In this document: positions 402-40,312 of the stretch, piece by piece
Layout of the letters: every line of letters starts with the position of its first letter
Numbering within the stretch: position 1 is the first letter of the stretch
DNA from: Candidatus Krumholzibacteriia bacterium
GTDB lineage: Bacteria; Krumholzibacteriota; Krumholzibacteriia; Krumholzibacteriales; Krumholzibacteriaceae
Assembly (NCBI GenBank): GCA_963836185.1
Contig: CAWIIQ010000001.1
Location: 1,280,001 to 1,344,000, forward strand
Direction: 5' to 3'
Length of the DNA: 64,000 nt
Notes under the pieces: model-generated
What the model was told of the DNA's origin: nothing
Databases searched by the model: none
What the model saw: the letters and a program-made list of their open reading frames with translations, nothing else
Position numbers and translations under genes: made by a program

Positions 402-3400
402 ATGTCCGGACCGATTAATAAGGCTTCCTCTGGAAGACCGGCGCATAAGCCGGGCAAAAGGGCCCTGAAGGGGCTTATGCTCGCAGTATGCCTCATTCCG
501 GGAATCCTCTTTTCCACGGCGGCATACGCTCAGCCGGGCAGCGGCACAGCCGCGATATTACCGGCGACAGATGTCGCGGCCGGATCCTCGGGGACCTGGA
601 CCGTCACCTATCAGGCCGCCACGAATTTTTCGACAGGGGTCGTAAGGCTGACAATACCGGCAGGCTGGACGACACCGCAGATATCCTTGAGCTCCTCCGC
701 GGGGTTTGTCACCGCGACAAGCCAGGGTGCACTTAACATCACTCCCATATCAATAGCGGGAAACAACATAACGGTCAATGTCGATACCTTGACAGCAGGC
801 GAAACGGTCACGATCGTTTATGGAGCTCCTGCCGGGCCGGCAGATGCCCAGACACTAACTCAGTCCGGCGTCGAGTTCACAGTCGGGTCCAACCCTCTCG
901 GTTCGTCGCCTTCTGATCTCACTGCCGGATCACCGACTCTGAACGTGGTGGCGGCGCCTGTCTCGAAACTTGTCTTCACTACTGCTGCCCAGACGGTAAA
1001 AGCTGGCGGAGAGAGCCAAGTCATGAGGGTCATGGCTTTCGACGAGTTCGACAATCCGTCACCGGTCGTTTCAGCCCAGGACGTTTCCCTGTCATCGACA
1101 TCGGGATCCGGGACCTTTTCGCATCTTCCCGCTGGAAGCTGGAGTGCGACGACTTCGGTCACGATATCGGCGGGAGAGGATACGGTCTCTTTCTATTACA
1201 GGGATACATTCCCTGGAGCCTACAATATCACCGCATCCGCGGACGGCCAGAGCTGGACCGATGCCCAGCAGACTGTAACGGTCGATCCGGGGGATGCGGC
1301 AAGCCTGGTCATCTCACCTGCTGATACGACGATCACGGCCGGAGAATTCGGCCGGTATATCCTTCGCACGATCGATATTATAGGGAACCCCAGCGCCCCT
1401 GCCGCGGATCAGACGATAACGCTGATCGCGGGCGGCGGCAGCTTCTATGACAAGGACGATCATGGTACGACCTTGACGGAGCTCGTGATCCCGTCGGGAT
1501 CGAGTGCGGCCGAGTTCGACTTCAGGCATACTATAAAGAATACCGGGGCCGGATACTTCCTCGTATTTCTCGACAATGACGGTGTCGCGCCTCTGCTCCA
1601 GTCGGACAACACTATAGTCTATATCGACAATGCGGCGGCTGATACGTCGGCCTCTTCAATCGAGACAGACGCGGCGACGGCCACCGCAGACGGTGTCGCT
1701 GAGATGGCTGTCACTGTGACGGTAAGGGATGAGTTCGGCAATCCCGTCCCAGGCGTCGCTGTAGTGCTTTCCATGACAGGTACGGGTAATGTGATCACAC
1801 AGCCTGGGGCAGTCACAGACGCGAGCGGTGTAGCGTCCGGATCGGTAAGATCGACAGTAGCCGAAGCCAAGAATATCCGCGCAACTGCGGATGGAACATA
1901 TCTCGAGGATATCATCCTGGTAACATTCACTGCCGGTCCTCTGGACCTTGCGGTATCGACGATAGGGGCTGTACCGCTGACGGTACCGGCGAACGGGACG
2001 GATATAACGACGGTGACTGTGACGGCCCGCGACGCCCAGGGGAACGCGGTGCCCGGGGCGGCTGTTGTGCTTGCGGCTACCGGCAGTGGCAACACGATAA
2101 CGCAGCCTGCGGTAGTGACGGACGCACTTGGGACAGCGACCGGGACGATATCGTCGACGGTGGCGGGGCTCAAGACAGTAAGCGCTACGATAAACGGATC
2201 GGCGCTGACGCCGACGGTGGATGTAGATTTTATAACGGGCACGTTCAGTCTGACAGAGTCCGAGATATCAGGGGACAAGTCTCTGGTGACAGCGGACGGA
2301 TCAGATGAGCTGACGGTGACGGTGACGGTAAGGGATGGAGAGGGGAACCCTGTAGCGGGTGCGGCGGTGACGCTGGAGGCGACCGGCACTGGCAATACGA
2401 TAACGGATCCTGGTCCTGTGACCGGAGTCGACGGGATAGCGACCGGGACGATATCGTCGACGGTGGCGGAGCAGAAGGTAGTGCGTGCTCTGATAGAGGG
2501 CTCGCAGATGGTCGACACTCTTGTCGTCGACTGGGAACACGGTCCTCTGGACCTTGCGGTATCGACGATAGGGGCTGTACCGCTGACGGTACCGGCGAAC
2601 GGGACGGATATAACGACGGTGACTGTGACGGCCCGCGACGCCCAGGGGAACGCGGTGCCCGGGGCGGCTGTTGTGCTTGCGGCTACCGGCAGTGGCAACA
2701 CGATAACGCAGCCTGCGGTAGTGACGGACGCACTTGGGACAGCGACCGGGACGATATCGTCGACGGTGGCGGGGCTCAAGACAGTAAGCGCTACGATAAA
2801 CGGATCGGCGCTGACGCCGACGGTGGATGTAGATTTTATAACGGGCACGTTCAGTCTGACAGAGTCCGAGATATCAGGGGACAAGTCTCTGGTGACAGCG
2901 GACGGATCAGATGAGCTGACGGTGACGGTGACGGTAAGGGATGGAGAGGGGAACCCTGTAGCGGGTGCGGCGGTGACGCTGGAGGCGACCGGCACTGGCA
3001 ATACGATAACGGATCCTGGTCCTGTGACCGGAGTCGACGGGATAGCGACCGGGACGATATCGTCGACGGTGGCGGAGCAGAAGGTAGTGCGTGCTCTGAT
3101 AGAGGGCTCGCAGATGGTCGACACTCTTGTCGTCGACTGGGAACACGGTCCTCTGGACCTTGCGGTATCGACGATAGGGGCTGTACCGCTGACGGTACCG
3201 GCGAACGGGACGGATATAACGACGGTGACTGTGACGGCCCGCGACGCCCAGGGGAACGCGGTGCCCGGGGCGGCTGTTGTGCTTGCGGCTACCGGCAGTG
3301 GCAACACGATAACGCAGCCTGCGGTAGTGACGGACGCACTTGGGACAGCGACCGGGACGATATCGTCGACGGTGGCGGGGCTCAAGACAGTAAGCGCTAC

Positions 3401-6400
3401 GATAAACGGATCGGCGCTGACGCCGACGGTGGATGTAGATTTTATAACGGGCACGTTCAGTCTGACAGAGTCCGAGATATCAGGGGACAAGTCTCTGGTG
3501 ACAGCGGACGGATCAGATGAGCTGACGGTGACGGTGACGGTAAGGGATGGAGAGGGGAACCCTGTAGCGGGTGCGGCGGTGACGCTGGAGGCGACCGGCA
3601 CTGGCAATACGATAACGGATCCTGGTCCTGTGACCGGAGTCGACGGGATAGCGACCGGGACGATATCGTCGACGGTGGCGGAGCAGAAGGTAGTGCGTGC
3701 TCTGATAGAGGGCTCGCAGATGGTCGACACTCTTGTCGTCGACTGGGAACACGGTCCTCTGGACCTTGCGGTATCGACGATAGGGGCTGTACCGCTGACG
3801 GTACCGGCGAACGGGACGGATATAACGACGGTGACTGTGACGGCCCGCGACGCCCAGGGGAACGCGGTGCCCGGGGCGGCTGTTGTGCTTGCGGCTACCG
3901 GCAGTGGCAACACGATAACGCAGCCTGCGGTAGTGACGGACGCACTTGGGACAGCGACCGGGACGATATCGTCGACGGTGGCGGGGCTCAAGACAGTAAG
4001 CGCTACGATAAACGGATCGGCGCTGACGCCGACGGTGGATGTAGATTTTATAACGGGCACGTTCAGTCTGACAGAGTCCGAGATATCAGGGGACAAGTCT
4101 CTGGTGACAGCGGACGGATCAGATGAGCTGACGGTGACGGTGACGGTAAGGGATGGAGAGGGGAACCCTGTAGCGGGTGCGGCGGTGACGCTGGAGGCGA
4201 CCGGCACTGGCAATACGATAACGGATCCTGGTCCTGTGACCGGAGTCGACGGGATAGCGACCGGGACGATATCGTCGACGGTGGCGGAGCAGAAGGTAGT
4301 GCGTGCTCTGATAGAGGGCTCGCAGATGGTCGACACTCTTGTCGTCGACTGGGAACACGGTCCTCTGGACCTTGCGGTATCGACGATAGGGGCTGTACCG
4401 CTGACGGTACCGGCGAACGGGACGGATATAACGACGGTGACTGTGACGGCCCGCGACGCCCAGGGGAACGCGGTGCCCGGGGCGGCTGTTGTGCTTGCGG
4501 CTACCGGCAGTGGCAACACGATAACGCAGCCTGCGGTAGTGACGGACGCACTTGGGACAGCGACCGGGACGATATCGTCGACGGTGGCGGGGCTCAAGAC
4601 AGTAAGCGCTACGATAAACGGATCGGCGCTGACGCCGACGGTGGATGTAGATTTTATAACGGGCACGTTCAGTCTGACAGAGTCCGAGATATCAGGGGAC
4701 AAGTCTCTGGTGACAGCGGACGGATCAGATGAGCTGACGGTGACGGTGACGGTAAGGGATGGAGAGGGGAACCCTGTAGCGGGTGCGGCGGTGACGCTGG
4801 AGGCGACCGGCACTGGCAATACGATAACGGATCCTGGTCCTGTGACCGGAGTCGACGGGATAGCGACCGGGACGATATCGTCGACGGTGGCGGAGCAGAA
4901 GGTAGTGCGTGCTCTGATAGAGGGCTCGCAGATGGTCGACACTCTTGTCGTCGACTGGGAACACGGTCCTCTGGACCTTGCGGTATCGACGATAGGGGCT
5001 GTACCGCTGACGGTACCGGCGAACGGGACGGATATAACGACGGTGACTGTGACGGCCCGCGACGCCCAGGGGAACGCGGTGCCCGGGGCGGCTGTTGTGC
5101 TTGCGGCTACCGGCAGTGGCAACACGATAACGCAGCCTGCGGTAGTGACGGACGCACTTGGGACAGCGACCGGGACGATATCGTCGACGGTGGCGGGGCT
5201 CAAGACAGTAAGCGCTACGATAAACGGATCGGCGCTGACGCCGACGGTGGATGTAGATTTTATAACGGGCACGTTCAGTCTGACAGAGTCCGAGATATCA
5301 GGGGACAAGTCTCTGGTGACAGCGGACGGATCAGATGAGCTGACGGTGACGGTGACGGTAAGGGATGGAGAGGGGAACCCTGTAGCGGGTGCGGCGGTGA
5401 CGCTGGAGGCGACCGGCACTGGCAATACGATAACGGATCCTGGTCCTGTGACCGGAGTCGACGGGATAGCGACCGGGACGATATCGTCGACGGTGGCGGA
5501 GCAGAAGGTAGTGCGTGCTCTGATAGAGGGCTCGCAGATGGTCGACACTCTTGTCGTCGACTGGGAACACGGTCCTCTGGACCTTGCGGTATCGACGATA
5601 GGGGCTGTACCGCTGACGGTACCGGCGAACGGGACGGATATAACGACGGTGACTGTGACGGCCCGCGACGCCCAGGGGAACGCGGTGCCCGGGGCGGCTG
5701 TTGTGCTTGCGGCTACCGGCAGTGGCAACACGATAACGCAGCCTGCGGTAGTGACGGACGCACTTGGGACAGCGACCGGGACGATATCGTCGACGGTGGC
5801 GGGGCTCAAGACAGTAAGCGCTACGATAAACGGATCGGCGCTGACGCCGACGGTGGATGTAGATTTTCTGACAGGATCGTTTGACATCGCTCTCTCCTTT
5901 ATGGATGGAGACAAGAACGAGGTCACGGCCGACGACGTGGACGCGCTGGGTGTTACTGTCATGGTGCGTGACCAGTATGACAATCCTGTGGTGGGAGCAG
6001 CCGTGACGCTGGAGGCGACCGGCACTGCCAATACAATAGTACAGCCTGTAGGTGGGACAGACATCGACGGGAAAGCGGATGGGACCATCAGTTCCACATT
6101 CGCCGAACGGAAGGTAATAAGGGCCCGTATCGGGACCGTGCAGATAACAGATACGCTGGTGGTCGACTGGGTGCCCGGGCCCGTGGACCTCGATCGCTCC
6201 CAGATATTCTCCGATGTGGACACTGTGACAGCCGATGGATCGGACAACTGCCGCATAACGGTAGTCGTCCGGGACGCGAATGACAATCCGATCGGCGGCG
6301 CCTCAGTAAATCTCCAGGCGGACGATACGGGCGGCAACAATACATACTTCCAGCCGGTCGACGACTCGAACGAATTTGGTATCGCGGTCGGATGGATCAG

Positions 6401-9400
6401 CTCGACCTACGCTGAGATAAAGACTGTAAGTGCTACAATAAATGGCTTTACGATGAGCGGCACGCGTGATGTCGCATTCGTGGCCGGAGAGCCGGACAGG
6501 TTTGTAATAACCCATGATGGATCGGGGACCGCGGGCGCTCCGGAAGAGATCTCGATCGAGATATTCGACGCGAATGACAATACCGTCGACTGGTTCGACG
6601 ATATCATACGTGTCTATACGGACAGTCCCGAGATAACGGATATGATCGACTGGGCCCTCGGCCCTGGAGCTTCGGGCAGTATAAGTGAGTCCGGGGATAC
6701 GGTCAGTTACGACTTCTCCGTGGCAGACAATGGAAGGGTAGTGCTGGGATTCCGTGATGAGAAGGCTGAGACTGTCTATTTCACTGCCAGGTACGGTTCC
6801 GTGATCGATCAGTCGGTGCTGTCGATGACGATCGCTCCCGCCCAAGCGGACAGCATCTTCATCATCGCGGGGAACGGTCAGCGTGCCGTTGTCGATCAGG
6901 CTGTGGCGCAGCCGCTGACAGTCGGCGTCGAGGACGCGTTCGGTAACCGGGTACCATCCCATGCCGTCAGGTTCCATGTCACAGCCGGCGCCGGTATGAT
7001 CGATGTCGATACTTCCTCACCGCCCGACGATCAGGAATGGACAGTGACCGATGGCGCGGGAGTCGCCGTATGTGATTCGTGGATACTCGGAACGGTAAGC
7101 GGGGAAGGCTCGGATGAAGCAAGCGCCTCGATCCCGTTCGGTTCGACCGATGAAGTGTTTTTTACCGCGACGACCGATCATGATGAACTGGCATCGGTAG
7201 TACTGGCCCCGGCTGTCGCCGGTGTCACGGTCAACAGCAACCTGATCGTGACCGCTACGATGAGGGATCAGTTTAACAACCTCGTTGTCGGCGAAAACCT
7301 CACGATCTTCATAAAGGATGCCGCTGACGGTACCCTCTCGGAAGATACGGGAAACGCGAATGCGACAGTTCCTCTGGGACCCGGTATCCGTTCCGGATCG
7401 AGCGATTCCACCGGAACAGTCACAGTCCAGTACAATTCGCCGGCTGCCGCGGGACTTTCGGACATCGTCGACGCTTCTCATGCCGTGTTGACAGCGGACC
7501 AGATAGCCGATGCTGTATACACCTCCGTCGCCAGTGGAGCTACCAAGCTTATTGTGACCGATATCACCGGCCAGCCCTCACAGGCGGGGACCGTATTCTC
7601 TTTCAGAGTGAGAGCGGTCGACAGCAACGACAACCTCGATCCGACAAATACAAGCCATATAGTGCTTGTACCCGAGGCTGGAGGAGGACTGATATTCAGC
7701 TCCGATATCGGATTAGTCCCGGCGATCACAGAAATCGATCTCATCAATGGCGAGTACCTCCTCTACGCAATGGGCACGGCCACCGGTGACTGGAACATCG
7801 ATGTGATAGATTCTCCTTCGAGCCTTACCGATGCGGCTTTCACGGCGTCAATTACGGCCAACGATAATGTCCATCACTATGCGATAACAGCGCCTGCTGT
7901 TGCGACGGCAGGTATCGATTTCCCTGTATCCCTCGAGGCGAGGGACGAATGGAACAACCTCGTTACAACGGCAAATTATGATATCGACCTTCGCGCAGTG
8001 CAGCCTGTTGACACTGCAGCAGCCGCGGGCGCGGCACTGAATATTACCGCCGGCGCTATCAGCAACGGCCGCTTCTCTGAAGATAATCTCAGGTATGACC
8101 TCGCCGAACCGATCAGGGTGGAGATCAGAGATGACAGCACCTCGGTCGTCGGCGTCAGCGGGGTCGTCGATATCGGTCACGCTCCCGCGTGGCAGATAGT
8201 GGAGGTCTCTGGAGATACGACAGGAGTGGCTGCCGGGAGCCTTGTACTGCTCAGCATGAGAGTTCTCGACAGTTTCGGCAACCCGGTGGGGGGTGAGACG
8301 GTCTCATTCAGCATACTGGAAGGCGGAGGCGGTCTCGGCGCGCTGCAGGGTGTGACCGGCGTGGACGGAATGACATCTGTCTCATACACGACTGGAGTGA
8401 TCGCGGGAACGAACAGGGTAAGGGCAGCGATACTCGATGGAAATCCCGAAGGTCTCGAGACGCGTGAATTCGTCATAGAGACTGTTCCCCAGGGAGCCAT
8501 CGCGTATGTACTCCTCGATATCACGGGAGACACTTTCGAGGCTGGTGAAGAGTTCACCGTCCACGTCACTGCTTACGATCTGAACAACAATCCCATAACC
8601 ACGGATAACTCTACCAGGCTCATACCAGTCGCCCAGACTCTCTCTGTAGTTTTCAATCCCGATACGTTGCAGCTCTCGTCAGGCGAGGCTTCGTTCACGG
8701 CAACGGATACTGTGATGGGTACGAACAGGATATTCATCGAAGAGCTTTCGGGGGTGACGCGCGGAGGGAGCAGTGACCTGACTATTACGGCGGGACCCGC
8801 GTACGAGCTCGTCAAGGTAAGCGGGGATACGACTGGTGTTATCTCGGGAGACACGACAGAGGTGCTGGTCCGGGTGGCCGATATGTACGGCAACCCTGTG
8901 CAGAACGAGACGGTGAGATTCCTGATAACGAGTAATCTCGGCGGCAGCCCGTCACTGATCGATGAAACAGGTGCCCCCGGTGATGGCCTTGTGCTCAGCG
9001 CAGCGAACGGCACGGCCGCGTGCAGGCTTGTTACTGACACGAATTACGGCACGAACAATGTGCTGACCACGATACTTGATGGAACACCGGAAAGGGAGAC
9101 TGCTACCTTCGATGTAGAGACTACCGCAGGCACCATCCAAAGATACACGTTGGTACCGGTCGGAACGATCCATACCGCCGGAGAGAGCTTCGACGTTGAG
9201 ATAACCGGCTATGACCTCAATGACAATGTCGCTGAAGGCGATTTTACGACCGTTGTAGATCTCGGGAGCGATGGAACAGCCGTGTGGGCGGAGAATCCTG
9301 TGACCCTGAACAACGGAAGGTACACCGTCAGCGTCTCGGAAAACGCCGCGGGTCCGCTTGTCCTGCATGCTGAGACCCAGGGCGGAGGAGCGCTCAGTAA

Positions 9401-12400
9401 CAGCGAGACGATCATGATCGTTCCGGAGCTTCCTTCAGGAGACATATGGATCGCCTCGATCAATCCCGATACGATCACTGCGGATGGAATGAGCCAGTCG
9501 GCGATCGAGACTGAGCCAGTATTCGATATCTACGGAAACGTCGTGCCCGAGAGGACTCTGGTAACTGTTTCGACTACCGGCGGCTCCGTAGCAAGCGAGG
9601 ATCTCGATCTGACAGAGCCCGGTGTCCAGAGAGAGACGGCCCAGAACGGGGTAGTTTCAGTCTTCGTCAGGTCCGGGATCACGCCGGGAGATTACGATGT
9701 AGATTTTGCCAGCGTTGAGGGATCTGCGACGGGTGACACAGTACTGACTTTCGCGCCTCCCCCCGCTGTGGCCTACGCCGATTCGATATATCCGATCTAC
9801 GCGGTGCCTGGATCGGACCTCCACTTCAGCGTCCGCATGACAAACACGAGCCCTACCAGGGTTCTCCTCGGCGCTGCGAGCAAGATCTCGTTCAGTGACG
9901 GAATCGGACATGAATTCGAAGCTGAACTGGGTTCCAGTCTCAGCCTCAACAGACTTGAGACGGCTGACCTGATATTTACCGAGACCACGATGCACCCGAT
10001 GTTCGAACCGGGAACATATTCACCGAGGATCTCACTGATCGGTACCGATGAATACGGATCGGCCTACACGGCGGGATTCGATGCCGGTGCCAACTCAGTG
10101 AGTGTATCTAGTATCGAGATCAGCAGTATCCTGCCCCTCAAGACCGTTGTGAGCAGGGGGGATACCGCAATAGTCAACGTGAACATCACTAATACAGGCG
10201 GAGCGGTAGTAAGGATACAGGAGATAGATCTTCTGTTCGCGTCCGGAAGTTATCTCGCTTTGCCCGATTCTACTTTCCCGGAACTGCCCGATACTCTGCC
10301 CGCCGGACTCAGCAGGACATATGCTCTAAAGACGATTGTGCTGCCGAACTGCCCGCTCGGTGTGGATACGATCGATGCCCAGGTGACCGCACGGGTCAAC
10401 GGCTATGAAGTCACAGACCTGACTGCTGATCATAACGTAGCGACCTGGACGGTCCAGTCCTCCGCTCTTATCTCTTATGAAGCTGGTACGCTCGCTCCGA
10501 TGGTCGTCTCTTCGGGGCAGGCTCATTCGTTCACTCTCGATCTCCTGAACTCTGGAGAAGCCGCGGTGATCCTCGATGCCGGCCTGACCACGTTATCATT
10601 TAACGATGGAACGGAGACATACGCTGTTGCTCTCGCCTCAGAAGGAGCGCTGCCGGGCGGAGCGGTCTCCGACCTGATATTCCCAGAGACCTCGATACCC
10701 GCCGGGATGAGTGCGGGAGCCTGGGAGGTGACCGTGGTGCTGAGCGGGACCGAGAACGGCGGCGAGTTCGATACCTCGTTCGTGCTGAGCGATCCGGTGA
10801 CGGTCGTAAGCCCGGCTGCTGTCAGTTATAACACCTCGTCACTCTCACCCTCGACCGTGAGCAAGAACAGCTCGGTGGCGTTCGAGGTCGGAATAAACAA
10901 CACCGGGGGCGCGGATGTCTTTCTCGATCCGGCTGCCACGACTTTCGAACTGGATGATGGCGCTACGACTTACATTGCTTATCTGGACGGCGCACGGAAT
11001 AATCTGCTGGCGCCAGGCGAAAATACGATATGGTTTGAAGCTGTCACGATCCCGCCAGGGTTTATTACAAACAGTTACACGCCGGTCATAGAACTGTCCG
11101 GTACGGAGAACGGCCTGCCATTCGCCGCGCAGCCTCCCGTTTCCGATGCGGTCTCTGTGCAGGATGCCTCGCAGCTTGCAATAAACAGCACCGAGATCTT
11201 ACTGACTGACCTGTTCACTGCTGACCAGACCGGATTCAGGATTGCTCAGATAAGGGTCGCCAACAATGGAGAAGCTGAGGTCAGGCTGGACAGCCTCGAT
11301 GTCAGGTTCTACATCGGCGGGAGCGAAGTCACTGGCGAGTATGTGTTGAGTCCCCTGCCGGATGTGGCGGGGATCCAGGTGCCCGGCGGAGCTGACACTC
11401 TCGTAAGGATGATGTTCGAAGATGGCGCCGGACCTGCGACGACAGGGACCGTGACTGTCGAGTCGTCCCTGTGGGGAACGGATCTCAACAGCATGGGTGA
11501 GCTGGAAGTGACGACTGAATACGGCGGCAAGGGGAGCTTCACAGTTCAGACACCCTCGGTCCTGGCAGTCGACCATGTCATCGCTTCGGTGACAGAGGCG
11601 ACGGCCGGCCAGGACAGGGACTGGGTTGTCGATGTGATAGTACGAAATGACGGGGAGTCAGACCTTGATCTGAATCTGGCAGCGACTGCCCTTACATTCT
11701 CGACTTCCGGTGATTTCACCGTCATCCCGCCGGCGGAGCTGGCAGGGGGCGGGATCACGCTCGAGGGAGAATCGTCCGATACATTGAGTTTTATTGTGGA
11801 TATTACAGGCTCAGTTTCCGGCAACTGCAGTGTGAACATGACTGCAAATGGAACTGAGATAAACTCAGCCAGGAATCTCGGTCCGGTCAGCGCCGACCCG
11901 GCTGACGCCGCTTCAGTGGATATCCAGGGTGAAGCGCTGCTGCAGGTCGTGTCCGTTACGGCTCTTCAGGATCCCGTGACTGTCGGCCAGTCTAACGAAT
12001 GGTCGATCGATATGGTCGTCATCAATGGCGGCGGATCGAGCGTGACGCTCGACCTCGACAGTTTCGATTCGACGTTTGTCGCGGTAGATGGAGGGATTGG
12101 TTTTGCCTTCACGCGGCCGACCGAGATACTCGAGGGAGGCCTGTCTCTCGAGGCGGGGGAGACGGGGACTCTGAGGTTTATTGTAAATACGACTGGATCG
12201 GTGCCTGCCGGAGCTACGGCACTCTCAGGAAGCATCATCGGCACCGAGGACAACAGCGGCTCCAGGGTATACGACGGGATAACAGGTCCTGTGGGAATCA
12301 ACTCGATGCTCTTTGAGGAGCGTCCCGTTCCTCAGTACACCCTCGACAGCCTCACTCCGACTGTAGCGAGCACGGGCTCGGATATCGGTATCCAGTTAGG

Positions 12401-16517: not shown

Positions 16518-16527
16518 GTGGAAGAGG

Positions 16528-18418
16528 ATGAAGAGAGTACTTGAAATAACACTGATCATCGCTCTCGGACTCTGTCCTGTCGGCGCTGCCGCACAGGATG
16601 GAGGCGGGGGAACGAGATCGGTCTTTACTCTCGGCGCCGGGTCCCGGGCCATCGCCATGGGCGGAGCTTTCTCCGCAGTGGCCAACGACGCATCAGCGCT
16701 CTACTACAATCCCGCCGCGATGAAGATCAACGGCGCGCCAACTTTAATGGCGAACCATATATCGCTCTTCTCCGGATTCACCGATGCGAGCTACGATTAT
16801 CTTGGACTCGTCTGGCCGACACTTGGAGCCGGGGCATTCGGTGCAGGCCTGCTCACGACTGGAACGGGTGGTATCCAGGGGTATGACGAGTTCAGCAGGC
16901 CTACCGGAGAACTCTCGTACAGGGAGAGCCAGGGGATCGTTTCGTACGCGTTCGATGTCCCATGGAGATTTGCGGGCACCTGGTCGTTGGGGACCTCGAT
17001 AAAGGTCCTCCATCAGAAGGTGGGAGAATATTCCGATACGGGGGCGGGACTCGACCTGGGCCTTCTTTACCGCATCAAGTATATCGAAGGACTCGTTTTC
17101 GGCGTGAACCTCCAGGATATCGTCGGAGCGAGGACAAAGCTCGTTTCGGCGAGCGATGAGGTATATCGCACGATGATGTTCGGTCTCGGTTACATAAGAC
17201 CGATCGGTGAGAGTTCCAGGCTGACCCTGGCGGTACAGATGGATATGCCGGAGAAGGCTGACAACGATCTCAGGGTCGGAGCCGAGTACACGATCCGCGA
17301 CATGATCAGCATCAGGATTGGGTTACGATTCTGAGTCATTTACAGCGGGAATCGGATTCACATGGCACGGGTACGCGTTCGACTACGGGTACTTCAGCAG
17401 GGAAGAGGCGGGAAGTTCGCACCCGATCACGCTGTCGGCCAGGCTGGGCAAACCGCTCGAGCAGCAGATCGCCGAGCAGGATGAGGCAAGAAGGATCGAA
17501 GAGGAGAGAATGCTCAACGATCTCTTCGCGGCTCGTATAGCCTCGCACATCGACGCCGCCGACAGTCTCCGTGGAGCGGGCGAACTGGAGAGCGCCCTCG
17601 ACGAGGTCAAGATAGCGCTCGAGTACGATCCGGGCAGTGAGAGGGCGTTGACTCTGCGCGATGAGATCGGAACGGCGATCCTGGCAGCACAGGCGGAGCG
17701 TGCGAAGGACAGCGAGAAAGAGCTTCTGATAAACCAGCATTTCGAACTTGGATTGAGACATTACAACGCCAACGAATATATCCTCGCGAGGGCCGAATGG
17801 AGGAACGTCCTTGAGATCGATCCTGAAAACGTGGAGGCACTCGGCTACCTGCGCCGGACCGAGGAGAAGCTCGACGAGCAACTCCAGTCACACGTTTCCA
17901 CGGCGGCGGAATACGAGAGGACAGGAAGGCTCCCAGAGGCGATAGGTGAGTGGAATATCGTCAGTATGATCGAACCCGATAATGCCGAGGCTGCCGCCGC
18001 GATCGAGCGGATCAAGCTGCGTATTAACAGCATGAGCAGGGATTACAACGAGGCCAATCGCAAGCTCCAGACGATCGATCTCTACGAGAGAGCGCTAACA
18101 GCGTTCAGCGAGGGCAGGTACGAGGACGCGGTCACGCTCTCGCAGCAGGTGCTCCAGCTCGACCCGGCTCATGAAGGGGCGAAAGATCTGATCAATGGGG
18201 CGCAGCGCAGGATGAGACCTCTCAGCGACGAGGAAAATGAAGAGATAAGGACCCTGTATATCCAGGGCATGACATACTTCGGCCAGAAGGAATATGAGAA
18301 GGCGATCGAAATATATTCGAGGATACTTGAGATCAATCCATATAACGAGAGTGTCAGAAAGCAGGTCGAAGAGGCACGGCAGAGATTGAAGAAACTCGAA
18401 TCACCTGAAGGCGGATAA
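16528..18418 (+). CDS. PorV/PorQ (FadL-like, UPF0164-type) outer-membrane barrel fused to a C-terminal TPR region; one apparent frameshift at ~17320
   Basis: Signal peptide and 'GAGSRAIAMGGAFSAVANDASALYYNPA' motif, plus 'GLDLGLLY' and 'VGAEY' strands. Removing one G at att-ggg-ttac joins '...ISIRIG' to 'YDSESFTAGIGF...FDYGY...SHPITLSARLG' (the last barrel strands), followed by TPRs (ALEYDP, VLEIDP, VLQLDP, ILEINP). Confidence 0.8.
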
Positions 18419-21400
18419 GTGAAGCGGGAGCTCCTAAAGGGCAAAGAGACATTCCACCTCGAGATCCCGGCCGATGAGAATAATCTCAGCGATGTCCGGG
18501 ATTTCATCGCCGAGGTCTGTTTTAAAGCCGGTTTCTCCAAGCGTGAGATGAACAATACGAAGCTCGCGATGGATGAGGCCTGCACGAATATCATCAAGCA
18601 CGCCTATCGTGACAAAGCCGGAACCATACGCATCGACGTCGAGGCGGAACCCGGCAAAGTCGAGATGAACATCTTCGACAGGGGAAAACCTTTCGACTGG
18701 TCGAAGGTGAAGGATCCCGACCTGCAGAAATATGTCGAGATCGGCAAGAAGGGCGGCCTCGGCATCTACCTGATGAACAGGTTGATGGACGACCTGGATT
18801 ATCAGACCTCGGAGGACGGAAACCGGCTCTACATGGCAAAGGTCGCGGGCAGCGAAATGTCAGAGCCCCTGTTTCTGTCCATCAAGCCGAAATGGACCGC
18901 GACTCTTCGATTCAAATTTGCGTTCAGGGCGACTCTCGGGCTTCTCGGTCTCGTATTCTTCCTCTGGGCAATACAGTATGTGAACCAGACAAGGGTCGTC
19001 AATTCCCGGACGGACGAGGCCTGGCAGTCGATGAAAAATTATGCCAGGGCGGTCGAGGGAAAGAGCGAGACGGCGATGATCAAGGACGACCTGTTCGATC
19101 CGGAGTACAGGGAACTCACCGATTTCGTGATCGAGAGGGTCGCGAAGCATCCAGCCGTTAGATACACGAAGATCGTCAACAACAGACGGGGTCATCGTCT
19201 CTTCAAGCGATGTGGAAGAGTTCATGATCGGATACCAGATCCCGCCGGGCGCCGTGACGATGGACCAGGGCGGGACGTGGGTGATAAAAAAGGATGAGGA
19301 CGGCGAAGTCACAAGGGAACTGCATTTCCCCATTTTTATAACGCGGGATGAGGCCGAGAATGTAGCGTCACTCGGTCGTGTCGTAGTCGGGGTCTCCGAG
19401 GGCGTGATAATGAACAGTGTCGACGATCCGAGGCTGAAGACAGCCCTGATCCTTATCGGCATATTCATAGTCGGGCTATCCCTGATCTACCTGCTCATCT
19501 CGGTTTTCGTAAAGCCGATACAGGCCCTGACAGACGGAGTAAGGGCGATCGGAGAAGGTGCGCTTCACGACGAGATAAAGATCGACGGGCCGGAGGAGAT
19601 CGGAGAGATCGCCAGGGCCTTCAACGAGATAACGATGAAATTCCGCGACGCACAGCAGAGCGTAGTCGAGCAGGAAAGGATGCAGAAGGAGATGCAGGTC
19701 GCCCAGGAGATCCAGCATTCGCTCCTTCCCGGGAAGGTCCCCGATGTCAGCGGGTATGACATCGCCAGCCTCTACCGCGCGGCCAAGGAAGTCGGAGGAG
19801 ACTATTACGACTTCGTAAGTGTCGATGAGGATACGCTAGGTGTAGTCGTGGCGGATGTGTCAGGCAAGGGCGTACCCGGCTCCCTCGTAATGACGATGAT
19901 CCGTACAGCTCTGAGAATGGAGGCGAGGGGAAGCCATTCTGCCGCAGACGTCATGGCGCGTATGAACGATTTTGTCACCGAGGACATGAAGAAGGGGATG
20001 TTTGTAACGATCTTCTACGTGATCCTCGATTCGAAGAACAGGGTCATCAGCTACGCGAGCGCGGGTCACAATCCCATGGTCCTGTTCCGGGCCGAGACAG
20101 ACGAGACATTTTTCCTCAATCCGCAGAGGGTTCCCTGTCGGCATCAGCCTTCCGGATGAAAGTCTTTTCCGGCGTTCGATAGACGTAGAAAAGATCAAAC
20201 TGAAAAAAGACGACATGCTCGTCATATACACAGATGGTGTGACCGAGGCGATGAACGACGCGAGGGAGCAGTATGGAGAGGATCGTCTGCTCGCCCTGAT
20301 AAAGACTTGCGGCAAGAAGTCACCCGACGAATTCATAGATCTGCTCAACGAGGATATCAGGGAATTCACAGGTGGCTATCCGCAGAACGACGATATCACT
20401 GTCGTTGCCGTGAAAGAAAAGATGATGGCCGACGACGTGCTCTTCGGGATCAGGAAGAAACTGCTCGATCTCGTGGAGGTAGAGGGTCTCACTGTGGCCG
20501 AGGCTTGCCTGCGCATGAAGGTGTCGCCGTCTACATACTACCGGTACAAGAAGCGTATGACCGAGATGGGAGACCGCGGGCTGAAAAACAAGAGCCTGCG
20601 TGAGGAGCACGAGATAAAACGGGTCAGCCTGGAGCAGAGGAAAGGCCTTCTCGAGATAATCAGAAGGGATCCGAAGTTCGGAGCGAAGCGGATAGCGACC
20701 ACATTCAATGAAGACAAGGATGAAGGTGATCTGCTGACACCGTCGTTGATCTATGATGAGCTGAAGAGGATGCGACTGAATACATACGACAAGAGACTCG
20801 AATATCTCAGGCGCAACAGGTTCATCACTGAGGAACAGTTCCAGGCGATGCTGTCCGGTGAGGAAGATCGAGGTCGTCACGGGGGACGGGGTGCCGACAG
20901 TTCCTGTCGATGAAATGCCTGTTCCCGGCGATGAACCCGGTGAGATCATTGAGCCCGCGGCCGTTGTTCCGGCGGAAACCGGACCCGTGGATACCGATGT
21001 GCCCGAGTACCAGCCTGTGACCGTCTCGAAGTTCGATGAGGATGCGGAGGAGGATGATGTAGACAAACTTCTCGCTTCGGTACTCGGAACGGATCAGGGA
21101 GAAGGCGGCCTCGTCGAGGTCCTGACGCAGGATGAAGAGACGGGAATCATCGTCGTAAGGGTAACGGGCCATCTCGATTCGAGTTCGGCTGGAGAACTCG
21201 AAGTGTTCCTCGAGAGTGTATACGAATACGGATTCTCCAAGATCGTAATGGATCTTGGAAGCGTACCTTATATCAGCAGCGGCGGATGGGGCATCTTCAC
21301 CGGACGTGTGAAGATGCTGAGGGAGAAAGAGGGCGACGTCGTTCTTGCGGGCATGTCTCCCGAGGTGTTCGATATCTACGAGCTTCTCGGTTTTCAGGAT

Positions 21401-22793
21401 ATCATCATGCATTTCCGCAACGTCGACGAAGCAGTCGATTTCATATCTCTTCCGTTCGATGTCAGGCAGGAAAGGCTCGAGCTCGTTTCCGGCAATGTCT
21501 CGGAAGGCAAGCGTCTCGAGCAGAGGATAAGCGCTGTCTCCAGGGAAGAGGAAGAGGCGGAGGAGGAAGGGGCAGTTCCGTGGTCGCCGCTGAGGATCGA
21601 AGCGGGGACGGTCGGGCAGTCTGGCGAGATCACGATACTCAATCTGATCGGGGTCATAGATACGGTCAGCTGCATGAAGCTCCGGGACATCCTGGAGAAC
21701 CTCATCGCAAAGGGTGTGAACGAAATTCGTGGTGGATATGTCCCTGGTCGAATATGTCAGCAGCGCGGGATGGGGAGTGTTCGCATCGAGGATAGATGAT
21801 GTGAGACGTGCCGAGGGTGATATAAAGATATTCGGGATGGATCCCGAAGTAGACAGCATCTTCCATCTGCTCGGATTCGATGTGATCATGCGCTCGTTCA
21901 GCATCCTGTCGGAGGCGATCGACGATTTCGAACGGAAACCGGCTCTTGCCAGCGTCGACTGTGCCGGCCACATCGACTATTGCCGTCCCGGCTAGACAAG
22001 CCGGCATCAGCTGCCGTGGACCGATGAAGAGACCGTGCAGGAGGCCGTTGCGGAAGCACCGGAGGCTGATACCAGGCAGACAGGCCCGGATATGAGCAGG
22101 CTGGAGTTCGAGGTTGTCGCAAGGAGGTCGCCCGACGGGAGATCGATGGTGCTCGATATCTCCGGGGCGATAGACGCCGCTACATCGGCTGTCTTTCGAG
22201 GACAGGCTGGAGATCGCGATCGAGGACAGCCCAGGTTCCTTGTGCTCGATCTTTCCGGAGTGATATATATAAGCAGCAGCGGCTGGGGAGTCATCGTCAA
22301 GTACATGCAGAAGACAGGGGAGCTGGGGCGGTAAGATGGCGCTTTCAGGGATGAATCAGCCGATATTCAAGATATTCAGGGACCTTGGGTTCGAGCCGCT
22401 GATACCGCACTTCATGAGCAGTGGAGCGGCTCTGGCCGAACTCTCCGCACCGGCCGCCGAATCGATCGATAGAGGAACCGGCCGCCAGGAAGTCGAGAGT
22501 CCGCCTCCCGCTGAAGAGGTCGTGAAGGAAGAGCCGGCGCAGAGTGGACGCGTTCCGGTCCGACCCGCTTCCCGAGAAGTCAGCGGGTCCCGAGCTGGAG
22601 AAAACCGGCGTCGAGCCGATAGAGCCGGCGGAAAGGGAGCAGGTCGAGACCACTCGACGTCAAACTCGACCTTTCTGAGAAGGCCGGAGAGGCTGAAGGT
22701 AAGGACGGGAAGATTCGCAAGATGGGATGGGGCGAGTACGGCAGGAAGCTTTTCGAGCGGAACAGCAAGAGGGACGGGAGGAAGAAGAAATGA
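18419..22793 (+). CDS. Multidomain partner-switching membrane protein: RsbW-like HATPase kinase, TM, extracytoplasmic domain, TM, HAMP, SpoIIE/PP2C phosphatase, tandem HTH, 3 STAS domains (~1450 aa after correcting multiple frameshifts)
   Basis: Kinase motifs 'DEACTNIIKHAY', 'DRGKPFD', 'GGLGIYLM'. HAMP 'KPIQALTDGVRAIGEG...EEIGEIARAFN'. PP2C 'VGGDYYDF', 'VADVSGKG', 'SAGHNP', 'YTDGVTEA', 'DDIT'. STAS 'YISSGGWG', 'YVSSAGWG', 'YISSSGWG'. Fragments join through +1 insertions inside domains (~19181, ~20124, ~21719, ~22327); joins in the linkers (~20863, ~21950-22020, ~22560-22670) are less certain. Final TGA overlaps the ParA ATG (ATGA). Confidence 0.75.
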
Positions 22794-23542
22794 AGAGCTT
22801 CGCGATAATGACTATGAAGGGGGGCACGGGCAAGACGACGACGGCAATAAGTCTCGCGCACGGATTGACCCTCAGCGGAAGAAAGGTGCTTCTCGTCGAC
22901 TGCGATCCGCAGCGAAATGTAGCCGTCACCTTCGGTGTCAAGGGAGAGAAGGGTCTCGACGGGCTCCTGATGACGGGCGACGTCGATATCATACAGGTAA
23001 GGGAGAACCTTTTCATCATAGACTCGGGCGGACGCCGGCTGGTCGAAGTAGAGCTGCAGCTGGGAAGACAGGAAAAACGCGAAGGAAGGATGCGGGACGC
23101 CCTGGCGCATCTGAAGGGGTGCGATTACGTTATCTGCGACTGCCCTCCCTCGATGAACCTGATAAATGTCAACGTGCTTGCTTACTGCGACGAAGTGATA
23201 GTCCCGGTAGGTATGGACTATCTTTCCGAAGTGGGGGCACGCCAGACGATGGAGATCATCGAGGAGATCAAGTGGATCACTGAAAAGAGCGCAATCGATT
23301 ACAGGATACTGCCTACATTCTACGATTCCCGCACGAGGATATCGAAGACCGTACTGAAGGACCTGAAGGAACATTTCGGTGACAGGGTTTTCAATACCGT
23401 GATCAGGATCAATACGGCGATAAAGGAAGCCCCGGGCTCAAACAAGACAATATATGAGCACGCTCCCCTGTCGAGGGGAGCGTACGATTACTACAAGCTG
23501 ACCGAAGAAGTGCTCGCTCTCGAAAAAGAGGATGAGCTCTGA
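22790..23542 (+). CDS. ParA/Soj/MinD-family ATPase (orphan; no parB adjacent)
   Basis: 'MKGGTGKTTT' deviant Walker A, 'VDCDPQ', 'DCPP', 'IRINTAIKEAP'. Start at 22790 with an upstream GGAGG and an ATGA overlap. Confidence 0.9.
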   Translation: MKSFAIMTMKGGTGKTTTAISLAHGLTLSGRKVLLVDCDPQRNVAVTFGVKGEKGLDGLLMTGDVDIIQVRENLFIIDSGGRRLVEVELQLGRQEKREGRMRDALAHLKGCDYVICDCPPSMNLINVNVLAYCDEVIVPVGMDYLSEVGARQTMEIIEEIKWITEKSAIDYRILPTFYDSRTRISKTVLKDLKEHFGDRVFNTVIRINTAIKEAPGSNKTIYEHAPLSRGAYDYYKLTEEVLALEKEDEL

Positions 23543-23612
23543 AGGCAGGCTGTTTTACTGTATTCCGCGGAGGAGATATGATACTATTCCCTCCATGCGG
23601 GAGGAGATCCTA

Positions 23613-24730
23613 TTGGACAGTTTTGAATTGAGGGAAGAGATACGTCACGGCGGGGCAAGTTATTTCCTGCAGACGAGCTATCAATCCTGAGAGCGGGCAG
23701 ATAAAGAGCGCGTTCTTCAGGGACGGAAATGTCTTTGATTCGATCGTAAGGCAGGCAGGGGATGCTGACGCCGACGAGCTCAGGGAACTCACGAAGGAGA
23801 TCCACCAGCGCAACAAGCGGAGCTTCCGGTTCATCCTCGACGCGAGAGACAACATCAGCAGATCGGACGATCCCAACCCGCATCTCAGGCTCGCCGAGAC
23901 CCTGTTGAGGAGGAATCTCTTCCGGGAGGCTGATAGCCGAGGCCGAGATGGCAGTGGAGAAGGGCGCGAAAGACTCGAGGGCATGGATGGTCACAGGCGA
24001 GGCTCTGTACATGATCGACGAGCTGGACATGGCCCTGGACGCGATCCGAAAAGGTATTGAGATCAGTCCCGATTATCCCGACCTGCACAACATCATCGGA
24101 AAGATATTTCTCAGGCAGAACATGTGCGGCATGGCGGTCGAGAGTTTCAAGAAGGCGATCAGCCTGAACATCTATTACGGAGAACCGTATCTGAACCTGA
24201 TCCGGGCATATCTGACCAACACGATAGTCAAGCAGGACTACGAGCTTTCCCGCGGGCTCGAGGAGAAATTCTCGACGAATCTCGAGAGGGCCGGTCAGCT
24301 CAATACAAACCTCAAAGACGGGATCCTCGATGAAGTAAGGGAACATTTCAAGCGGGAGCAGTATGAAGAGGCTCTGAAGCTGCTCGAAGGAATCGATACG
24401 GTCAATCCCCGAAGTCTCGTAGACGATATTATCCTCGAGCTCTATCTGATGCTCATCCAGAGCGGAGATGAGATCGAGGAGGCGGATATCGAAAAGTACC
24501 TGGAGAAGGTCGAGGAGATACTGGACCGGAATCCTACCTTCGCCGATGCCTGGAACTCGCTGGGAATCCTTTATACTGCAAAATGCAAGGTATTCATGGA
24601 TAAAGCCAGTGTAGCATTCGGGAAGGCTCTCGAGATCAACCCGGAGTATGAAAAAGCGAGGAAAAACCTGAGGCTTACGGAGAACGACCGACAAGGAATT
24701 TTTATCCTTTTAAAGGCATTATTGGACTGA
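23613..24730 (+). CDS. Cytoplasmic TPR protein with an uncharacterised N-terminal domain; apparent frameshifts at ~23682 and ~23931
   Basis: RBS GGAGGAG followed by TTG. Reading across two +1 insertions gives MDSFELREEIRHGGASYFLQTSY-NPESGQIK...LRLAETLLRRNLFREA-IAEAEMAVEKG. TPRs 'EISPDYPDLHNIIG', 'RNPTFADAWNSLG', 'ALEINPEYEKARKNL'. Confidence 0.75.
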
Positions 24731-24777
24731 AAGTTGCAGTTCAAGGACGCGAGGCAATAAAAACAGGAATCTGACGC

Positions 24778-25146
24778 ATGGACAAGCTGCTTATAAACGA
24801 AGAAAAGGTCGAGGACGTAGTCGTCCTGAAGCTACAGGGGCTGGTAGATTCCGGCACCTCTCAGCAGATGGAAGGACGGCTTAACGATCTGATCTCTGAC
24901 GGTAACGTCAAGATCGTCGTGGATCTCGACCTGGTGGATTACATAAGTTCCGCCGGATGGGGGATATTCGTAGGTGAGATAAAGGGAGTAAGAGAGAGCG
25001 ACGGCGATATCAAACTAGCCTCGATGCGTCCCGATGTTCGGGAGGTATTCGACCTGCTCGAGTTCAACACCCTGCTGACACCGTACGATTCCCGGGGGGA
25101 TGCTCTGGCAGCGTTTGAAGCGGATAAAAGAAGCGAACTGGCTTGA
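24778..25146 (+). CDS. STAS-domain anti-sigma-factor antagonist (RsbV/SpoIIAA-like)
   Basis: 'LQGLVD', 'IVVDLDLVDYISSAGWGIF', 'VREVFDLL'. Confidence 0.92.
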   Translation: MDKLLINEEKVEDVVVLKLQGLVDSGTSQQMEGRLNDLISDGNVKIVVDLDLVDYISSAGWGIFVGEIKGVRESDGDIKLASMRPDVREVFDLLEFNTLLTPYDSRGDALAAFEADKRSELA

Positions 25147-25173
25147 GCAAGGAAGCAAAGGGGAACAATACCG

Positions 25174-25575
25174 ATGAATGACATCAACATTTCTTTTTCT
25201 AAATCTGACGAGAATCCCGATGTATCGGTCATATCCGTGAAGGGATATGTCGACACCACGACCTCGACCGATCTCGAAGAGAGCCTCAAGCGACTGCTGG
25301 GCAAGGGAAGATACGACATAGTAATAGACCTGGGAGATGTGAACTATATCAGTTCCGCAGGATGGGGTATCTTCATCAGTGAGATCAAGGAGATCAGGGA
25401 AAACGGCGGGGACCTGAAGCTTGCCGCTATGATCGGCGACGTCTACGAGGTATTCGAACTGCTCGAGTTCCAGACTATCCTGGAGAGTTTTGATACTGTC
25501 GAGGAAGCTGTCACTAGCTTTGGCGAGTCTTCTCGCGGGAAAAACGGAAGCGAGGAGAACCAGATCAAGGCTTGA
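25174..25575 (+). CDS. STAS-domain anti-sigma-factor antagonist (RsbV/SpoIIAA-like), paralog of the preceding gene
   Basis: 'VKGYVD', 'IVIDLGDVNYISSAGWGIF', 'VYEVFELL'. Confidence 0.92.
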   Translation: MNDINISFSKSDENPDVSVISVKGYVDTTTSTDLEESLKRLLGKGRYDIVIDLGDVNYISSAGWGIFISEIKEIRENGGDLKLAAMIGDVYEVFELLEFQTILESFDTVEEAVTSFGESSRGKNGSEENQIKA

Positions 25576-25605
25576 TCGCTGACTCGATATAGCTGAAAAT
25601 TACAG

Positions 25606-25632
25606 ACCTCCGCCAACGGCGGAGGTTTTTTT
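25606..25632 (+). terminator. Rho-independent terminator ending the operon
   Basis: acctccgcc-aac-ggcggaggt stem-loop followed by a T-tract. Confidence 0.85.
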
Positions 25633-25690
25633 ATTATCCGGCTACGGCCATCCTCGGTTAAACTCTCCCTGTTGTATCGATGGAGGTATT

Positions 25691-27843: not shown

Positions 27844-27915
27844 GCCGGGATAATCCGAAAATCCTTGATATAGCCGCTGCCCGGGAGTAAACTTCCTGTC
27901 GGAAGACAGGGAGGT

Positions 27916-39479: not shown

Positions 39480-39500
39480 AGGAACCCGAAGAATGTGATC

Positions 39501-39533
39501 ACAGACGGCCGGTGTCCAGCCCTGGCCGTCTGT
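39501..39533. terminator. Hairpin between convergent genes (possible bidirectional terminator)
   Basis: acagacggcc...ggccgtctgt inverted repeat. Confidence 0.5.
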
Positions 39534-39535
39534 TT

Positions 39536-40312
39536 CTATATATTCATCCTGAGGGAGAGGCAGGAGAGTCCGCCGTCCATCTTCTGGAACTCAGTCATGT
39601 CTACTTCTACGATCTCCAGCCCTTTTTTTTTGAGCTTCTCCCGGGTTACAGGGAATCCGGCGGGAAAGAGTATCCGGCCGTTGATCTCTATACTGTTCGC
39701 GCAATACTCTTCCCCTTCGGCGACAGTGATTGTATCGAGCCCGGTGAACTCATCTCTGCCCGCCATAGATCCGTCGGCAAGCAAGGTGCCGTTTCCCATG
39801 TAGCTGACGCCCGATTTCAGGTGGAGGCCGCAGGCGACAGGAACAGTCCCGCACTTGAATCCGTCCTTCTCAAAGATCTCACTGAGCTGTCTGGCGCCTG
39901 CTTCATCGGTCCTGTCCGAAAGACCGATGAGGATCCGGTCATCGATCTCGAGAACGTCACCTCCGTCTATCCTCCCCGGTGGTTCGATCCTGTCGACCTC
40001 GAAGTAACGGGAAAGGACCGGTTCGATAAGGGCGGCCTCGCCGAGGCGTGAAGGATGCCCGGGTCTCGTGATCACGGCGCGGCTGCCTGCGATCACGGCC
40101 GGGTCCTCGATAAATGTGGAGTCGGGGTAATCTTCGATGGCATCGAGAAGTATGACTTCTATTCCGCAAGAGCGCAGCGCCTCGCAGTAAGCCGCGTGCT
40201 GCTGTACGGCCAGATCCATATCGGGGCTGCCGAGGCCGGCTCCGGTGAGCCCCTGGCCGAGCGACATGGCCGGCCGCCTCGCTACAGCTTTCGTAAATAC
40301 TCCACTTTTCAA
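39536..40312 (-). CDS. Dimethylarginine dimethylaminohydrolase/amidinotransferase (pentein) family
   Basis: 'QH..Y', 'PDSTFIED', 'SRLGE', 'DGGDVL', 'LHLKS', 'KMDGGLSCLS'. Confidence 0.9.
   Translation of the reverse strand: MKSGVFTKAVARRPAMSLGQGLTGAGLGSPDMDLAVQQHAAYCEALRSCGIEVILLDAIEDYPDSTFIEDPAVIAGSRAVITRPGHPSRLGEAALIEPVLSRYFEVDRIEPPGRIDGGDVLEIDDRILIGLSDRTDEAGARQLSEIFEKDGFKCGTVPVACGLHLKSGVSYMGNGTLLADGSMAGRDEFTGLDTITVAEGEEYCANSIEINGRILFPAGFPVTREKLKKKGLEIVEVDMTEFQKMDGGLSCLSLRMNI

Follow-up and report, generated by a model that had tools for sequence, protein, structure and literature searches.

A conserved cargo-barrel-receptor locus of Krumholzibacteriota as a candidate trans-envelope relay

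How could the state of a fibre on the outside of a bacterial cell reach a regulatory switch at the inner membrane? The question is raised by a locus of seven genes in the genome of a Candidatus Krumholzibacteriia bacterium (assembly GCA_963836185.1, here G000; 6 contigs, 3.5 Mb, 92.5% complete), located in a stretch of 64,000 nucleotides (nt) that is called the window in this text (contig C1:1280001-1344000). The genes are co-directional on the plus strand, with gaps of 10, 0, -4, 70, 47 and 27 nt, as re-read from the sequence, and encode a giant immunoglobulin-like (Ig) protein, a barrel fused to tetratricopeptide repeats (TPR), a receptor carrying kinase and phosphatase domains, a ParA protein, a second TPR protein and two STAS proteins. 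A preliminary description proposed these seven parts as one system across the envelope. The core unit is smaller, consisting of a cargo with a type A C-terminal sorting domain (CTD), the barrel-TPR protein and a receptor with the order transmembrane segment (TM), sCache, TM and HAMP, while the output is swappable; the gene order is conserved far beyond chance. We consider it rather probable that the locus is a trans-envelope relay, leading from a surface fibre to an inner-membrane switch. The genes and the domains on which the argument leans are as follows.

402-16517, plus strand: giant gene, 5371 amino acids (aa), frame unbroken
16200-16517, plus strand: type A CTD (TIGR04183, 29.1 bits against a cut-off of 23, last 121 aa)
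16528-18418, plus strand: barrel-TPR gene
16528-17443, plus strand: 14-strand barrel of the PorV/PorQ family, with a single frame break near 17320
17444-18418, plus strand: rod of TPR helices fused to the barrel, with a predicted periplasmic location (TPR families; all-helical AlphaFold2 (AF2) model)
18248-18373, plus strand: distal TPR cap, predicted to bind the sensor (residues 574-585 and 606-615 of the orthologue in the closest relative, G003)
18419-22793, plus strand: receptor gene, at least seven frame breaks in the window
18974-19450, plus strand: extracytoplasmic sCache domain (PF17203, 29.9 against a cut-off of 28.4)
20437-20826, plus strand: bipartite helix-turn-helix (HTH) region like the N-terminus of IS481 transposase, integrase core absent
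22790-23542, plus strand: ParA gene
23613-24730, plus strand: cytoplasmic-type TPR gene, two frame breaks, no evident signal peptide
24778-25146, plus strand: STAS-only protein 1, ISSAGWG serine motif
25174-25575, plus strand: STAS-only protein 2, ISSAGWG serine motif

Regarding the conservation of this order, a query covering the PP2C end and HTH region of the receptor matched in 94 of the 208 genomes of the phylum at E ≤ 1e-5; four families carry it in 40/42, 8/8, 22/23 and 12/13 genomes, and two others in 1/91 (a weak match) and 0/12. The orthologous set comprises 60 stretches from 59 genomes, and the adjacency counts, here and below, exclude loci without room at contig ends. Among these stretches, 57 of 58 assessable loci have the barrel-TPR gene immediately before the receptor gene, and 49 of 50 have the giant gene immediately before the barrel.

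A paralogous barrel-TPR family, having about 25% identity to the first, is spread over the phylum, also in the two families where the first is missing, and has no member in G000. Its set of 80 barrel-TPR copies in 79 stretches was chosen from about 110. The next gene encodes a Cache/HAMP protein in all 79 cases with room, and a cargo with a CTD is directly upstream in 75 of the 80; one more cargo, that of G050, is inverted and still adjacent, and four copies have none. The part after the HAMP domain varies, as 54 of these loci possess a PP2C with RsbW fused or adjacent, usually with a STAS gene, 24 possess an HD-GYP domain and one has an output of unknown type. Thus, the partner switch that was put forward as the output in the preliminary description stands as one output, and not as the sole one.

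The search was also made in the reverse direction, in genomes at least 90% complete, with a profile of the sensor for which strong matches are those of 87 bits or more (the next group reaches 63 or less). It returned 131 strong matches in 128 genomes, and 124 of 129 assessable sensors lie directly behind a barrel-TPR gene; as the profile was built from such loci, this count shows only that few close family members sit elsewhere. Outside the phylum, a scan of 3 of the 64 parts of the genome collection (phyla as labelled in the records) found 24 loci whose matches extend into the HTH region; 21 belong to phyla other than Krumholzibacteriota, among them Calditrichota, KSB1, Eisenbacteria, Zixiibacteriota, FCPU426 and Spirochaetes. 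Where there was room upstream, the barrel-TPR gene was present in 13 of 14 of these loci and the giant gene together with the barrel in 12 of 14. Moreover, in a profile search of 1.84 billion representatives the whole RsbW-to-HTH architecture recurred in many clusters, to some of which a C-terminal TPR region is fused. The linkage therefore held in the orthologous, paralogous and other-phyla loci alike, as expected from the preliminary description; of its seven parts, the cargo, the barrel-TPR protein and the sCache-HAMP sensor are invariant, and the ParA, the three STAS domains and the TPR protein are not.

The first member of the core, the giant protein, contains Big_1 domains in 16+2 stretches (at least 18), plus Invasin_D3, and its N-terminus is basic, then hydrophobic, ending in A-x-A, which is signal-like by eye. 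The word adhesin used for it earlier is suggested by the Ig repeats; no ligand-binding domain was identified, and the N-terminal 370 aa match only unnamed clusters. Orthologous giant reading frames have 2850-5918 aa in 20 genomes, some being shortened by frameshifts, and that of G003 is 989 aa shorter than the one in the window. A further feature lies inside the gene:

1941-5576, plus strand: six identical 606-nt units of two Big_1 domains each, with 0 mismatches among units

The absence of any DNA difference among these units stems either from an expansion of very recent date or from an artefact of the long-read consensus. From its CTD, the protein is predicted to be a type A cargo of a type IX secretion system (T9SS). 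A profile made from 20 orthologous CTDs scores 152 with the CTD of the giant and 76.5 with the next open reading frame (ORF) of the genome, and the comparison of CTD profiles shows that the CTD of each locus family is distinctive. A genome-wide scan found 106 type A CTD matches in G000, the CTD of the giant itself not being among them.

The secretion system itself is represented in G000 by SprA (308.6 against a cut-off of 200) and PorU (554 against 420), the latter adjoining a PorV-family gene (208 against 90), and six PorV-family barrels are above the cut-off in the genome. SprA and the PorU-PorV pair are encoded at C2:331131-335548 and C1:2036249-2040659. GldM and GldN had no match in G000 at its 92.5% completeness, where control genomes also gave none above the cut-off and GldK and GldL were not searched. 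The T9SS of this genome, which is outside Bacteroidota, is thus possibly motor-less or divergent. A second cargo-barrel pair stands at C1:1230982-1235244, with a cargo of 1068 aa directly followed by a PorV-family barrel devoid of TPR.

Regarding the barrel, it scores 93 bits in the window and 113 in G003 with the family hidden Markov model (HMM) NF033709 (cut-off 90). G003 orthologues were used for structure modelling owing to the frame breaks in the window. The AF2 model predicts 14 strands (predicted local distance difference test, pLDDT, 88), with PorV (8gl6_F) as its top fold match. The PorV equivalog HMM NF033710 gives 27.5 against a cut-off of 250, so the protein is not a canonical PorV, and since a generic PorU-PorV pair stands elsewhere in the genome, the barrel of this locus is an extra paralogue of the family. 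The rod of 320 residues is predicted to be periplasmic because it is placed after the last strand of the barrel. A FadL-like importer was discarded as the main reading of this protein, as PorV outranks FadL by fold, no FadL chain is among the 60 best of 136 PDB sequence matches, and UPF0164 gives 16.5, below its cut-off of 21.4.

The contact between the TPR tail and the sensor, which had been proposed beforehand, is supported by controlled structure prediction, and binding of cap and Cache is predicted by the model. The last 125 residues of the barrel-TPR protein from G003 were folded with the Cache domain of the same genome, using an alignment of 149 rows for each, from which L079, L185 and L186 had been dropped (frameshift, duplicates). 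The predicted complex has a score of 0.74, compared to 0.01 for the best of three controls, with 100% contact agreement between runs and a partner pLDDT of at least 83. Solved complexes reach the mark for this score in 116 of 157 cases and mismatched pairs in 2 of 215; this guide is only rough, as own alignments were used. In the predicted interface, residues 574-585 and 606-615 of the cap meet residues 224-238 and 265-269 of the sensor (G003 numbering), and the sensor side is just beyond the far end of a long helix (163-220) that starts in the first TM, being its membrane-distal tip. In addition, the interface columns of the cap are more conserved than the rest, with a mean top-residue frequency of 0.77 against 0.63 (type A rows).

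These elements can be arranged in one path. The giant Ig protein would be exported through SprA by the T9SS and likely held on its own PorV-family barrel, where the CTD would bind and be retained with no cleavage by PorU. The TPR rod would span the periplasm, and its tip is predicted by the model to dock on the sCache domain of the receptor. Load, ligand binding or loss of the fibre would then move the rod, and the signal would pass via the second TM and the HAMP domain to the PP2C, against which the N-terminal RsbW kinase would work; in this way the kinase/phosphatase balance on the STAS serines would shift with the state of the fibre. The output would be independent of sigma factors, acting via the STAS proteins and the IS481-like HTH, and ParA would position the long form of the receptor through its basic tail. 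As the same input feeds HD-GYP in the paralogous loci, the domain content points to a control of the sessile or surface-associated state. A broader statement, that a T9SS-exported fibre of several thousand residues, a dedicated PorV-TPR barrel and an sCache-HAMP receptor make a continuous wire from surface to cytoplasm, with plug-in outputs, in several uncultured phyla and on a T9SS that is maybe Gld-less, appears to us evenly balanced between true and false; its plug-ins may be a serine/STAS partner switch with a transposase-derived HTH or a cyclic di-GMP phosphodiesterase.

A number of observations weigh against the relay. Related genomes are non-independent samples in the adjacency counts, and the swap to HD-GYP comes down to few events: the sensor tree requires 2 changes for it, and the trees of cap and barrel 5-6. 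The loci of G200 (L066, L067) and G201 (L072), which are the exceptions in the orthologous counts, are split inside genes; their halves lie far apart, by rearrangement or misassembly. Five of the 129 sensors have no adjacent intact barrel, three being barrel-less, one having a cap remnant and one, a second copy, lying three genes downstream, and L183 has no barrel either. The case that the preliminary description had named as contrary to it, signalling genes occurring apart from barrel or giant, is consequently real, in a minority of 5/129 within the phylum and 1/14 outside. Moreover, L204, L090, L179, L180 and L181 possess barrel and sensor and no adjacent cargo. The complex was folded for the G003 orthologue only, with unrelated proteins as the only controls, and how barrel and rod are oriented to each other is uncertain (predicted template modelling score 0.59). 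The interface of the sensor is no more conserved than the rest of its domain (0.46 against 0.46), and the covariation of cap and sensor (mean-field direct coupling analysis, 149 pairs) was null, with a maximal z of 5.1 compared to 4.2-5.8 in 8 shuffles.

Among these exceptions, L204 is instructive for the role of the rod, as its barrel keeps only the distal cap, the rest of the rod being deleted. Meanwhile, secreted TPR proteins free of any barrel and ending in the same cap are encoded at L208:8006-9943, L210:8359-9933 and L211:7962-9929, directly before a related HAMP-PP2C sensor gene, with STAS and RsbW genes also downstream of them. Because it is kept in L204 and in L208, L210 and L211, the distal cap is the part that keeps its place beside the sensor gene. 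The sensor profile matches 12 times in five genomes from other phyla, and 7 matches are found in the L211 genome. The cargo-less barrel-sensor pairs and the barrel-free cap proteins before Cache-HAMP-PP2C would also suit a monitor of the envelope, in which cap and Cache do bind but report the distance between outer and inner membrane or barrel assembly, the giant being an anchored or co-regulated passenger, and the predicted complex fits this equally well. We hold it to be unlikely; against it, a cargo is directly upstream in 49/50, 75/80 and 12/14 loci, is adjacent in G050 even when inverted, and bears a CTD distinctive for each family.

The nature of the sCache domain brings a further alternative. 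The nearest solved sequences are DcuS and CitA, which are small-molecule sensors, a point that also speaks against the relay, and among the PDB relatives of the domain (DcuS, CitA and other kinase sensors) none is named as a TPR complex. There might therefore be no physical relay, with sCache sensing a small molecule, the switch regulating the expression or release of the neighbouring surface protein, and the TPR rod binding another partner, for instance chaperones or proteins linked to peptidoglycan. The null covariation and the few sensors devoid of barrels agree with it, and the SiaABC switch is a precedent for a switch that works with no sigma factor (10.1101/674879). However, the controlled interface prediction, the family-conserved cap residues lying in the interface, and the persistence of the cap beside the sensor gene through fusions and deletions make this explanation improbable. 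Even less probable, and to our judgement very much so, is a checkpoint resembling PorA-PorY, where the CTD of unexported cargo would bind the Cache domain in the periplasm and report the load of the T9SS. It has a precedent in the periplasmic binding of the PorA CTD to PorY (PMC12152298), and cargo and sensor are co-inherited; it leaves unexplained the fused TPR rod, the cargo-less loci and the predicted cap-Cache interface. For the relay, the key claim reduces to a contact between two small soluble domains, the TPR cap and the Cache.

On the cytoplasmic side, the receptor has the order RsbW-type kinase, TM, sCache_3, TM, HAMP, PP2C, bipartite HTH, three STAS domains and basic tail; its orthologue in G003 is intact, with 1455 aa, and an AF2 model of it was made. 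Family searches upheld the domain calls of the preliminary description (barrel-TPR, RsbW/PP2C receptor, HTH, ParA, TPR and STAS). Both catalytic centres are preserved, as the kinase residues E53, N57, H61, D87, G89, G112, G113 and G115 and the metal-binding aspartates D461, D464, D479, D605, D657 and D658 of the PP2C are invariant in 27/27 aligned orthologues. By fold, the receptor matches SpoIIAB and RsbW in its kinase, and Rv1364c and SiaA-PP2C are among the top matches. The motif SS[AG]GWG is found in all five STAS units of the locus, and its serine is the one that we take to be equivalent to the RsbV/SypA serine. No SigB/F/G sigma factor is encoded in the locus, the best match in G000 having 131 against a cut-off of 234, and no sigma-factor family matched any protein of the region, in agreement with the earlier reading.

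The HTH region matches NF033577 with an E value of 1.5e-15 over positions 2-112 of the 284 in the profile, at 57.5 against a cut-off of 224, and is 26% identical (E 6e-10) to an IS481-like transposase fragment on contig C3 of G000 (L082:17413-18027). An IS481 transposase was rejected, as only the HTH region matches and the receptor has no integrase match, and so was an insertion sequence within the receptor, the HTH being in frame in 27/27 aligned orthologues with no integrase. Regarding a shared operator, the regions upstream of 13 giant genes have only words of coding sequence in common and no meaningful repeats. By profile search, the second HTH of the receptor is copied at the C-terminus of 12 STAS proteins in other phyla, while a pairwise BLAST of the receptor HTH against the C-terminus of one STAS protein failed (E 0.048). 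Such STAS proteins with a C-terminal HTH, as in L191:7610-8272, L192:11412-12134 and L187:13969-14628, are candidate output regulators. Other receptors have a long linker and a C-terminal cytoplasmic TPR region in place of the STAS tail (L187:9977-13831, L189:6088-10092 and L190:9977-13519).

Regarding the remaining genes, the ParA is an orphan of the AAA_31 family with the Walker A sequence KGGTGKT, and parB is absent as its neighbour, the flanking genes being those of the receptor and the TPR protein. ParA occurs in 47/47 loci whose receptor ends in a GW-x-x-Y tail and in 0/8 with an intact receptor devoid of this tail, a count that leaves aside L182-L205 altogether and 7 loci with frameshifts or truncations; in L193, L201 and L202 it is found where the motif is missing. 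The eight intact short receptors have no three STAS domains, no GW-x-x-Y tail, no ParA and no TPR gene, and these losses sit in two or three lineages, so they represent few events. Missing from the short forms, the three fused STAS domains, ParA and the gene for the cytoplasmic TPR protein count as accessory parts. STAS-only protein 2 is conserved better than protein 1 and is usually the closer match where one STAS gene remains.

The state of the sequence deserves attention, as at least 10 frame breaks are spread over the barrel, receptor and TPR genes of the window. In orthologues, each of these genes is one intact ORF (barrel-TPR 629 aa, receptor about 1450 aa, TPR about 372 aa). In run X1, independent contigs of short reads have one letter fewer at 22321 and at 22653, which are two of the breaks (one contig per site, depth 2.6 and 4.1), and the housekeeping gene tsaC/yrdC (43474-44092) is split by a frame break likewise. 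For these three reasons, the breaks are most likely assembly errors, and a true pseudogenisation of the locus was ruled out. Two further signals frame the last three genes:

23554-23582, plus strand: sigma70-like consensus match in the parA-TPR gap, a candidate internal promoter
25604-25638, plus strand: intrinsic terminator-like hairpin, its 11-pair stem and the T run after it lying at 25604-25628

The hairpin and its T run stand at the end of the operon, where a terminator had been noticed. Nine sigma70-like sites were found, compared to 5.8±2.2 in shuffled sequences, and the site in the parA-TPR gap is the only one on the plus strand; the sequence of this gap is similar in four congeners. 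The TPR gene and the two STAS genes may thus also have their own promoter, which weakens the view of a single transcript, while the one co-directional unit with a terminator at its end stands.

Past the terminator, at 25691-29550, a gene for a VWA-like membrane protein is followed by a lamin-tail/FlgD-Ig gene, an order common to Krumholzibacteriota and Eisenbacteria-labelled loci. Before the window begins, there is a CBM48/AMPK1_CBM gene of some 650 aa (L102:10988-12937), and many relatives have a gene of comparable size ahead of the giant gene. Elsewhere in the window there are two tandem aldo-keto reductase/4Fe-4S paralogues (38265-41627), a long ankyrin-repeat protein (53623-55677) and a protease of the papain family whose end is FlgD-Ig and CTD-like (55803-58334).

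Taken as a whole, this is a real, widespread and modular locus made of known parts, whose arrangement was not found described among the titles and abstracts listed from the open literature, subscription papers and supplements, which could list such loci, being outside the scope of the search; likewise, no paper bringing together Krumholzibacteriota and type IX secretion was found in the open literature. If the relay is true, PorV-family barrels, hitherto known only as shuttles and anchors, would gain a signalling role, a large sCache subfamily would have its protein ligand identified, and it would be seen how uncultured phyla of sediment and subsurface sense surfaces or neighbours. Should the contact fail, there remains an unusual partner switch linked to a type A cargo and its dedicated barrel.

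Among the known systems, FecA-FecR-FecI and RcsF-IgaA also have an outer-membrane component that reaches across the periplasm to an inner-membrane regulator; the working principle is alike, and no components are shared with this locus. The canonical sigmaB/sigmaF switch has its kinase, PP2C and STAS serine motif in common with the receptor, and its cognate sigma factor has no counterpart above the cut-off in G000. SypE/SypA, SiaABC, BtrUVW and Rv1364c are likewise built from RsbW-type kinase, PP2C and STAS. SypE is a dual kinase/phosphatase (PMC8256260), and SiaABC is a partner switch devoid of sigma that controls aggregation and biofilm (10.1101/674879). In the parts of these sources that were accessible, none is described with kinase and phosphatase flanking a periplasmic sensor, with an IS481-like HTH or with an input from the outer membrane. 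PorA-PorXY-SigP resembles the locus in linking a T9SS cargo to an inner-membrane sensor (PMC12152298); there the CTD binds a histidine kinase, whereas here the predicted contact is from barrel-TPR to sCache, and the output is serine phosphorylation or HD-GYP.

Regarding the barrels, the PorV shuttle (6h3i_F, 8gl6_F) is the closest solved one by sequence and fold, and the locus barrel differs from it in its 320-residue TPR rod and in falling below the PorV equivalog cut-off. The loops of PorV bind type A CTDs (PMC10994853), and according to PMC12618676 the PorV shuttle recognises every CTD of type A. The Treponema pallidum proteins TP0548, TP0859 and TP0865 are 14-strand FadL-like barrels with an NPA-type hatch and C-terminal TPR helices assigned to the periplasm (PMC8407342); that source takes them for nutrient importers, with a three-helix tail, for which the accessible part of this source describes no link to a cargo or sensor. 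The type B systems, PG1035-PorP-PorE of Porphyromonas gingivalis and SprB-SprF of Flavobacterium johnsoniae, share with the locus a cargo gene beside a dedicated anchoring barrel. In them, a type B cargo has its own anchoring barrel and a periplasmic partner (PMC9143113, PMC12618676). Nine of 12 type B cargo genes adjoin a SprF-like gene (PMC12618676). Unlike those systems, here the CTD is of type A, the barrel belongs to the PorV/PorQ family and has the TPR fused to it, and the predicted partner is an inner-membrane sensor.

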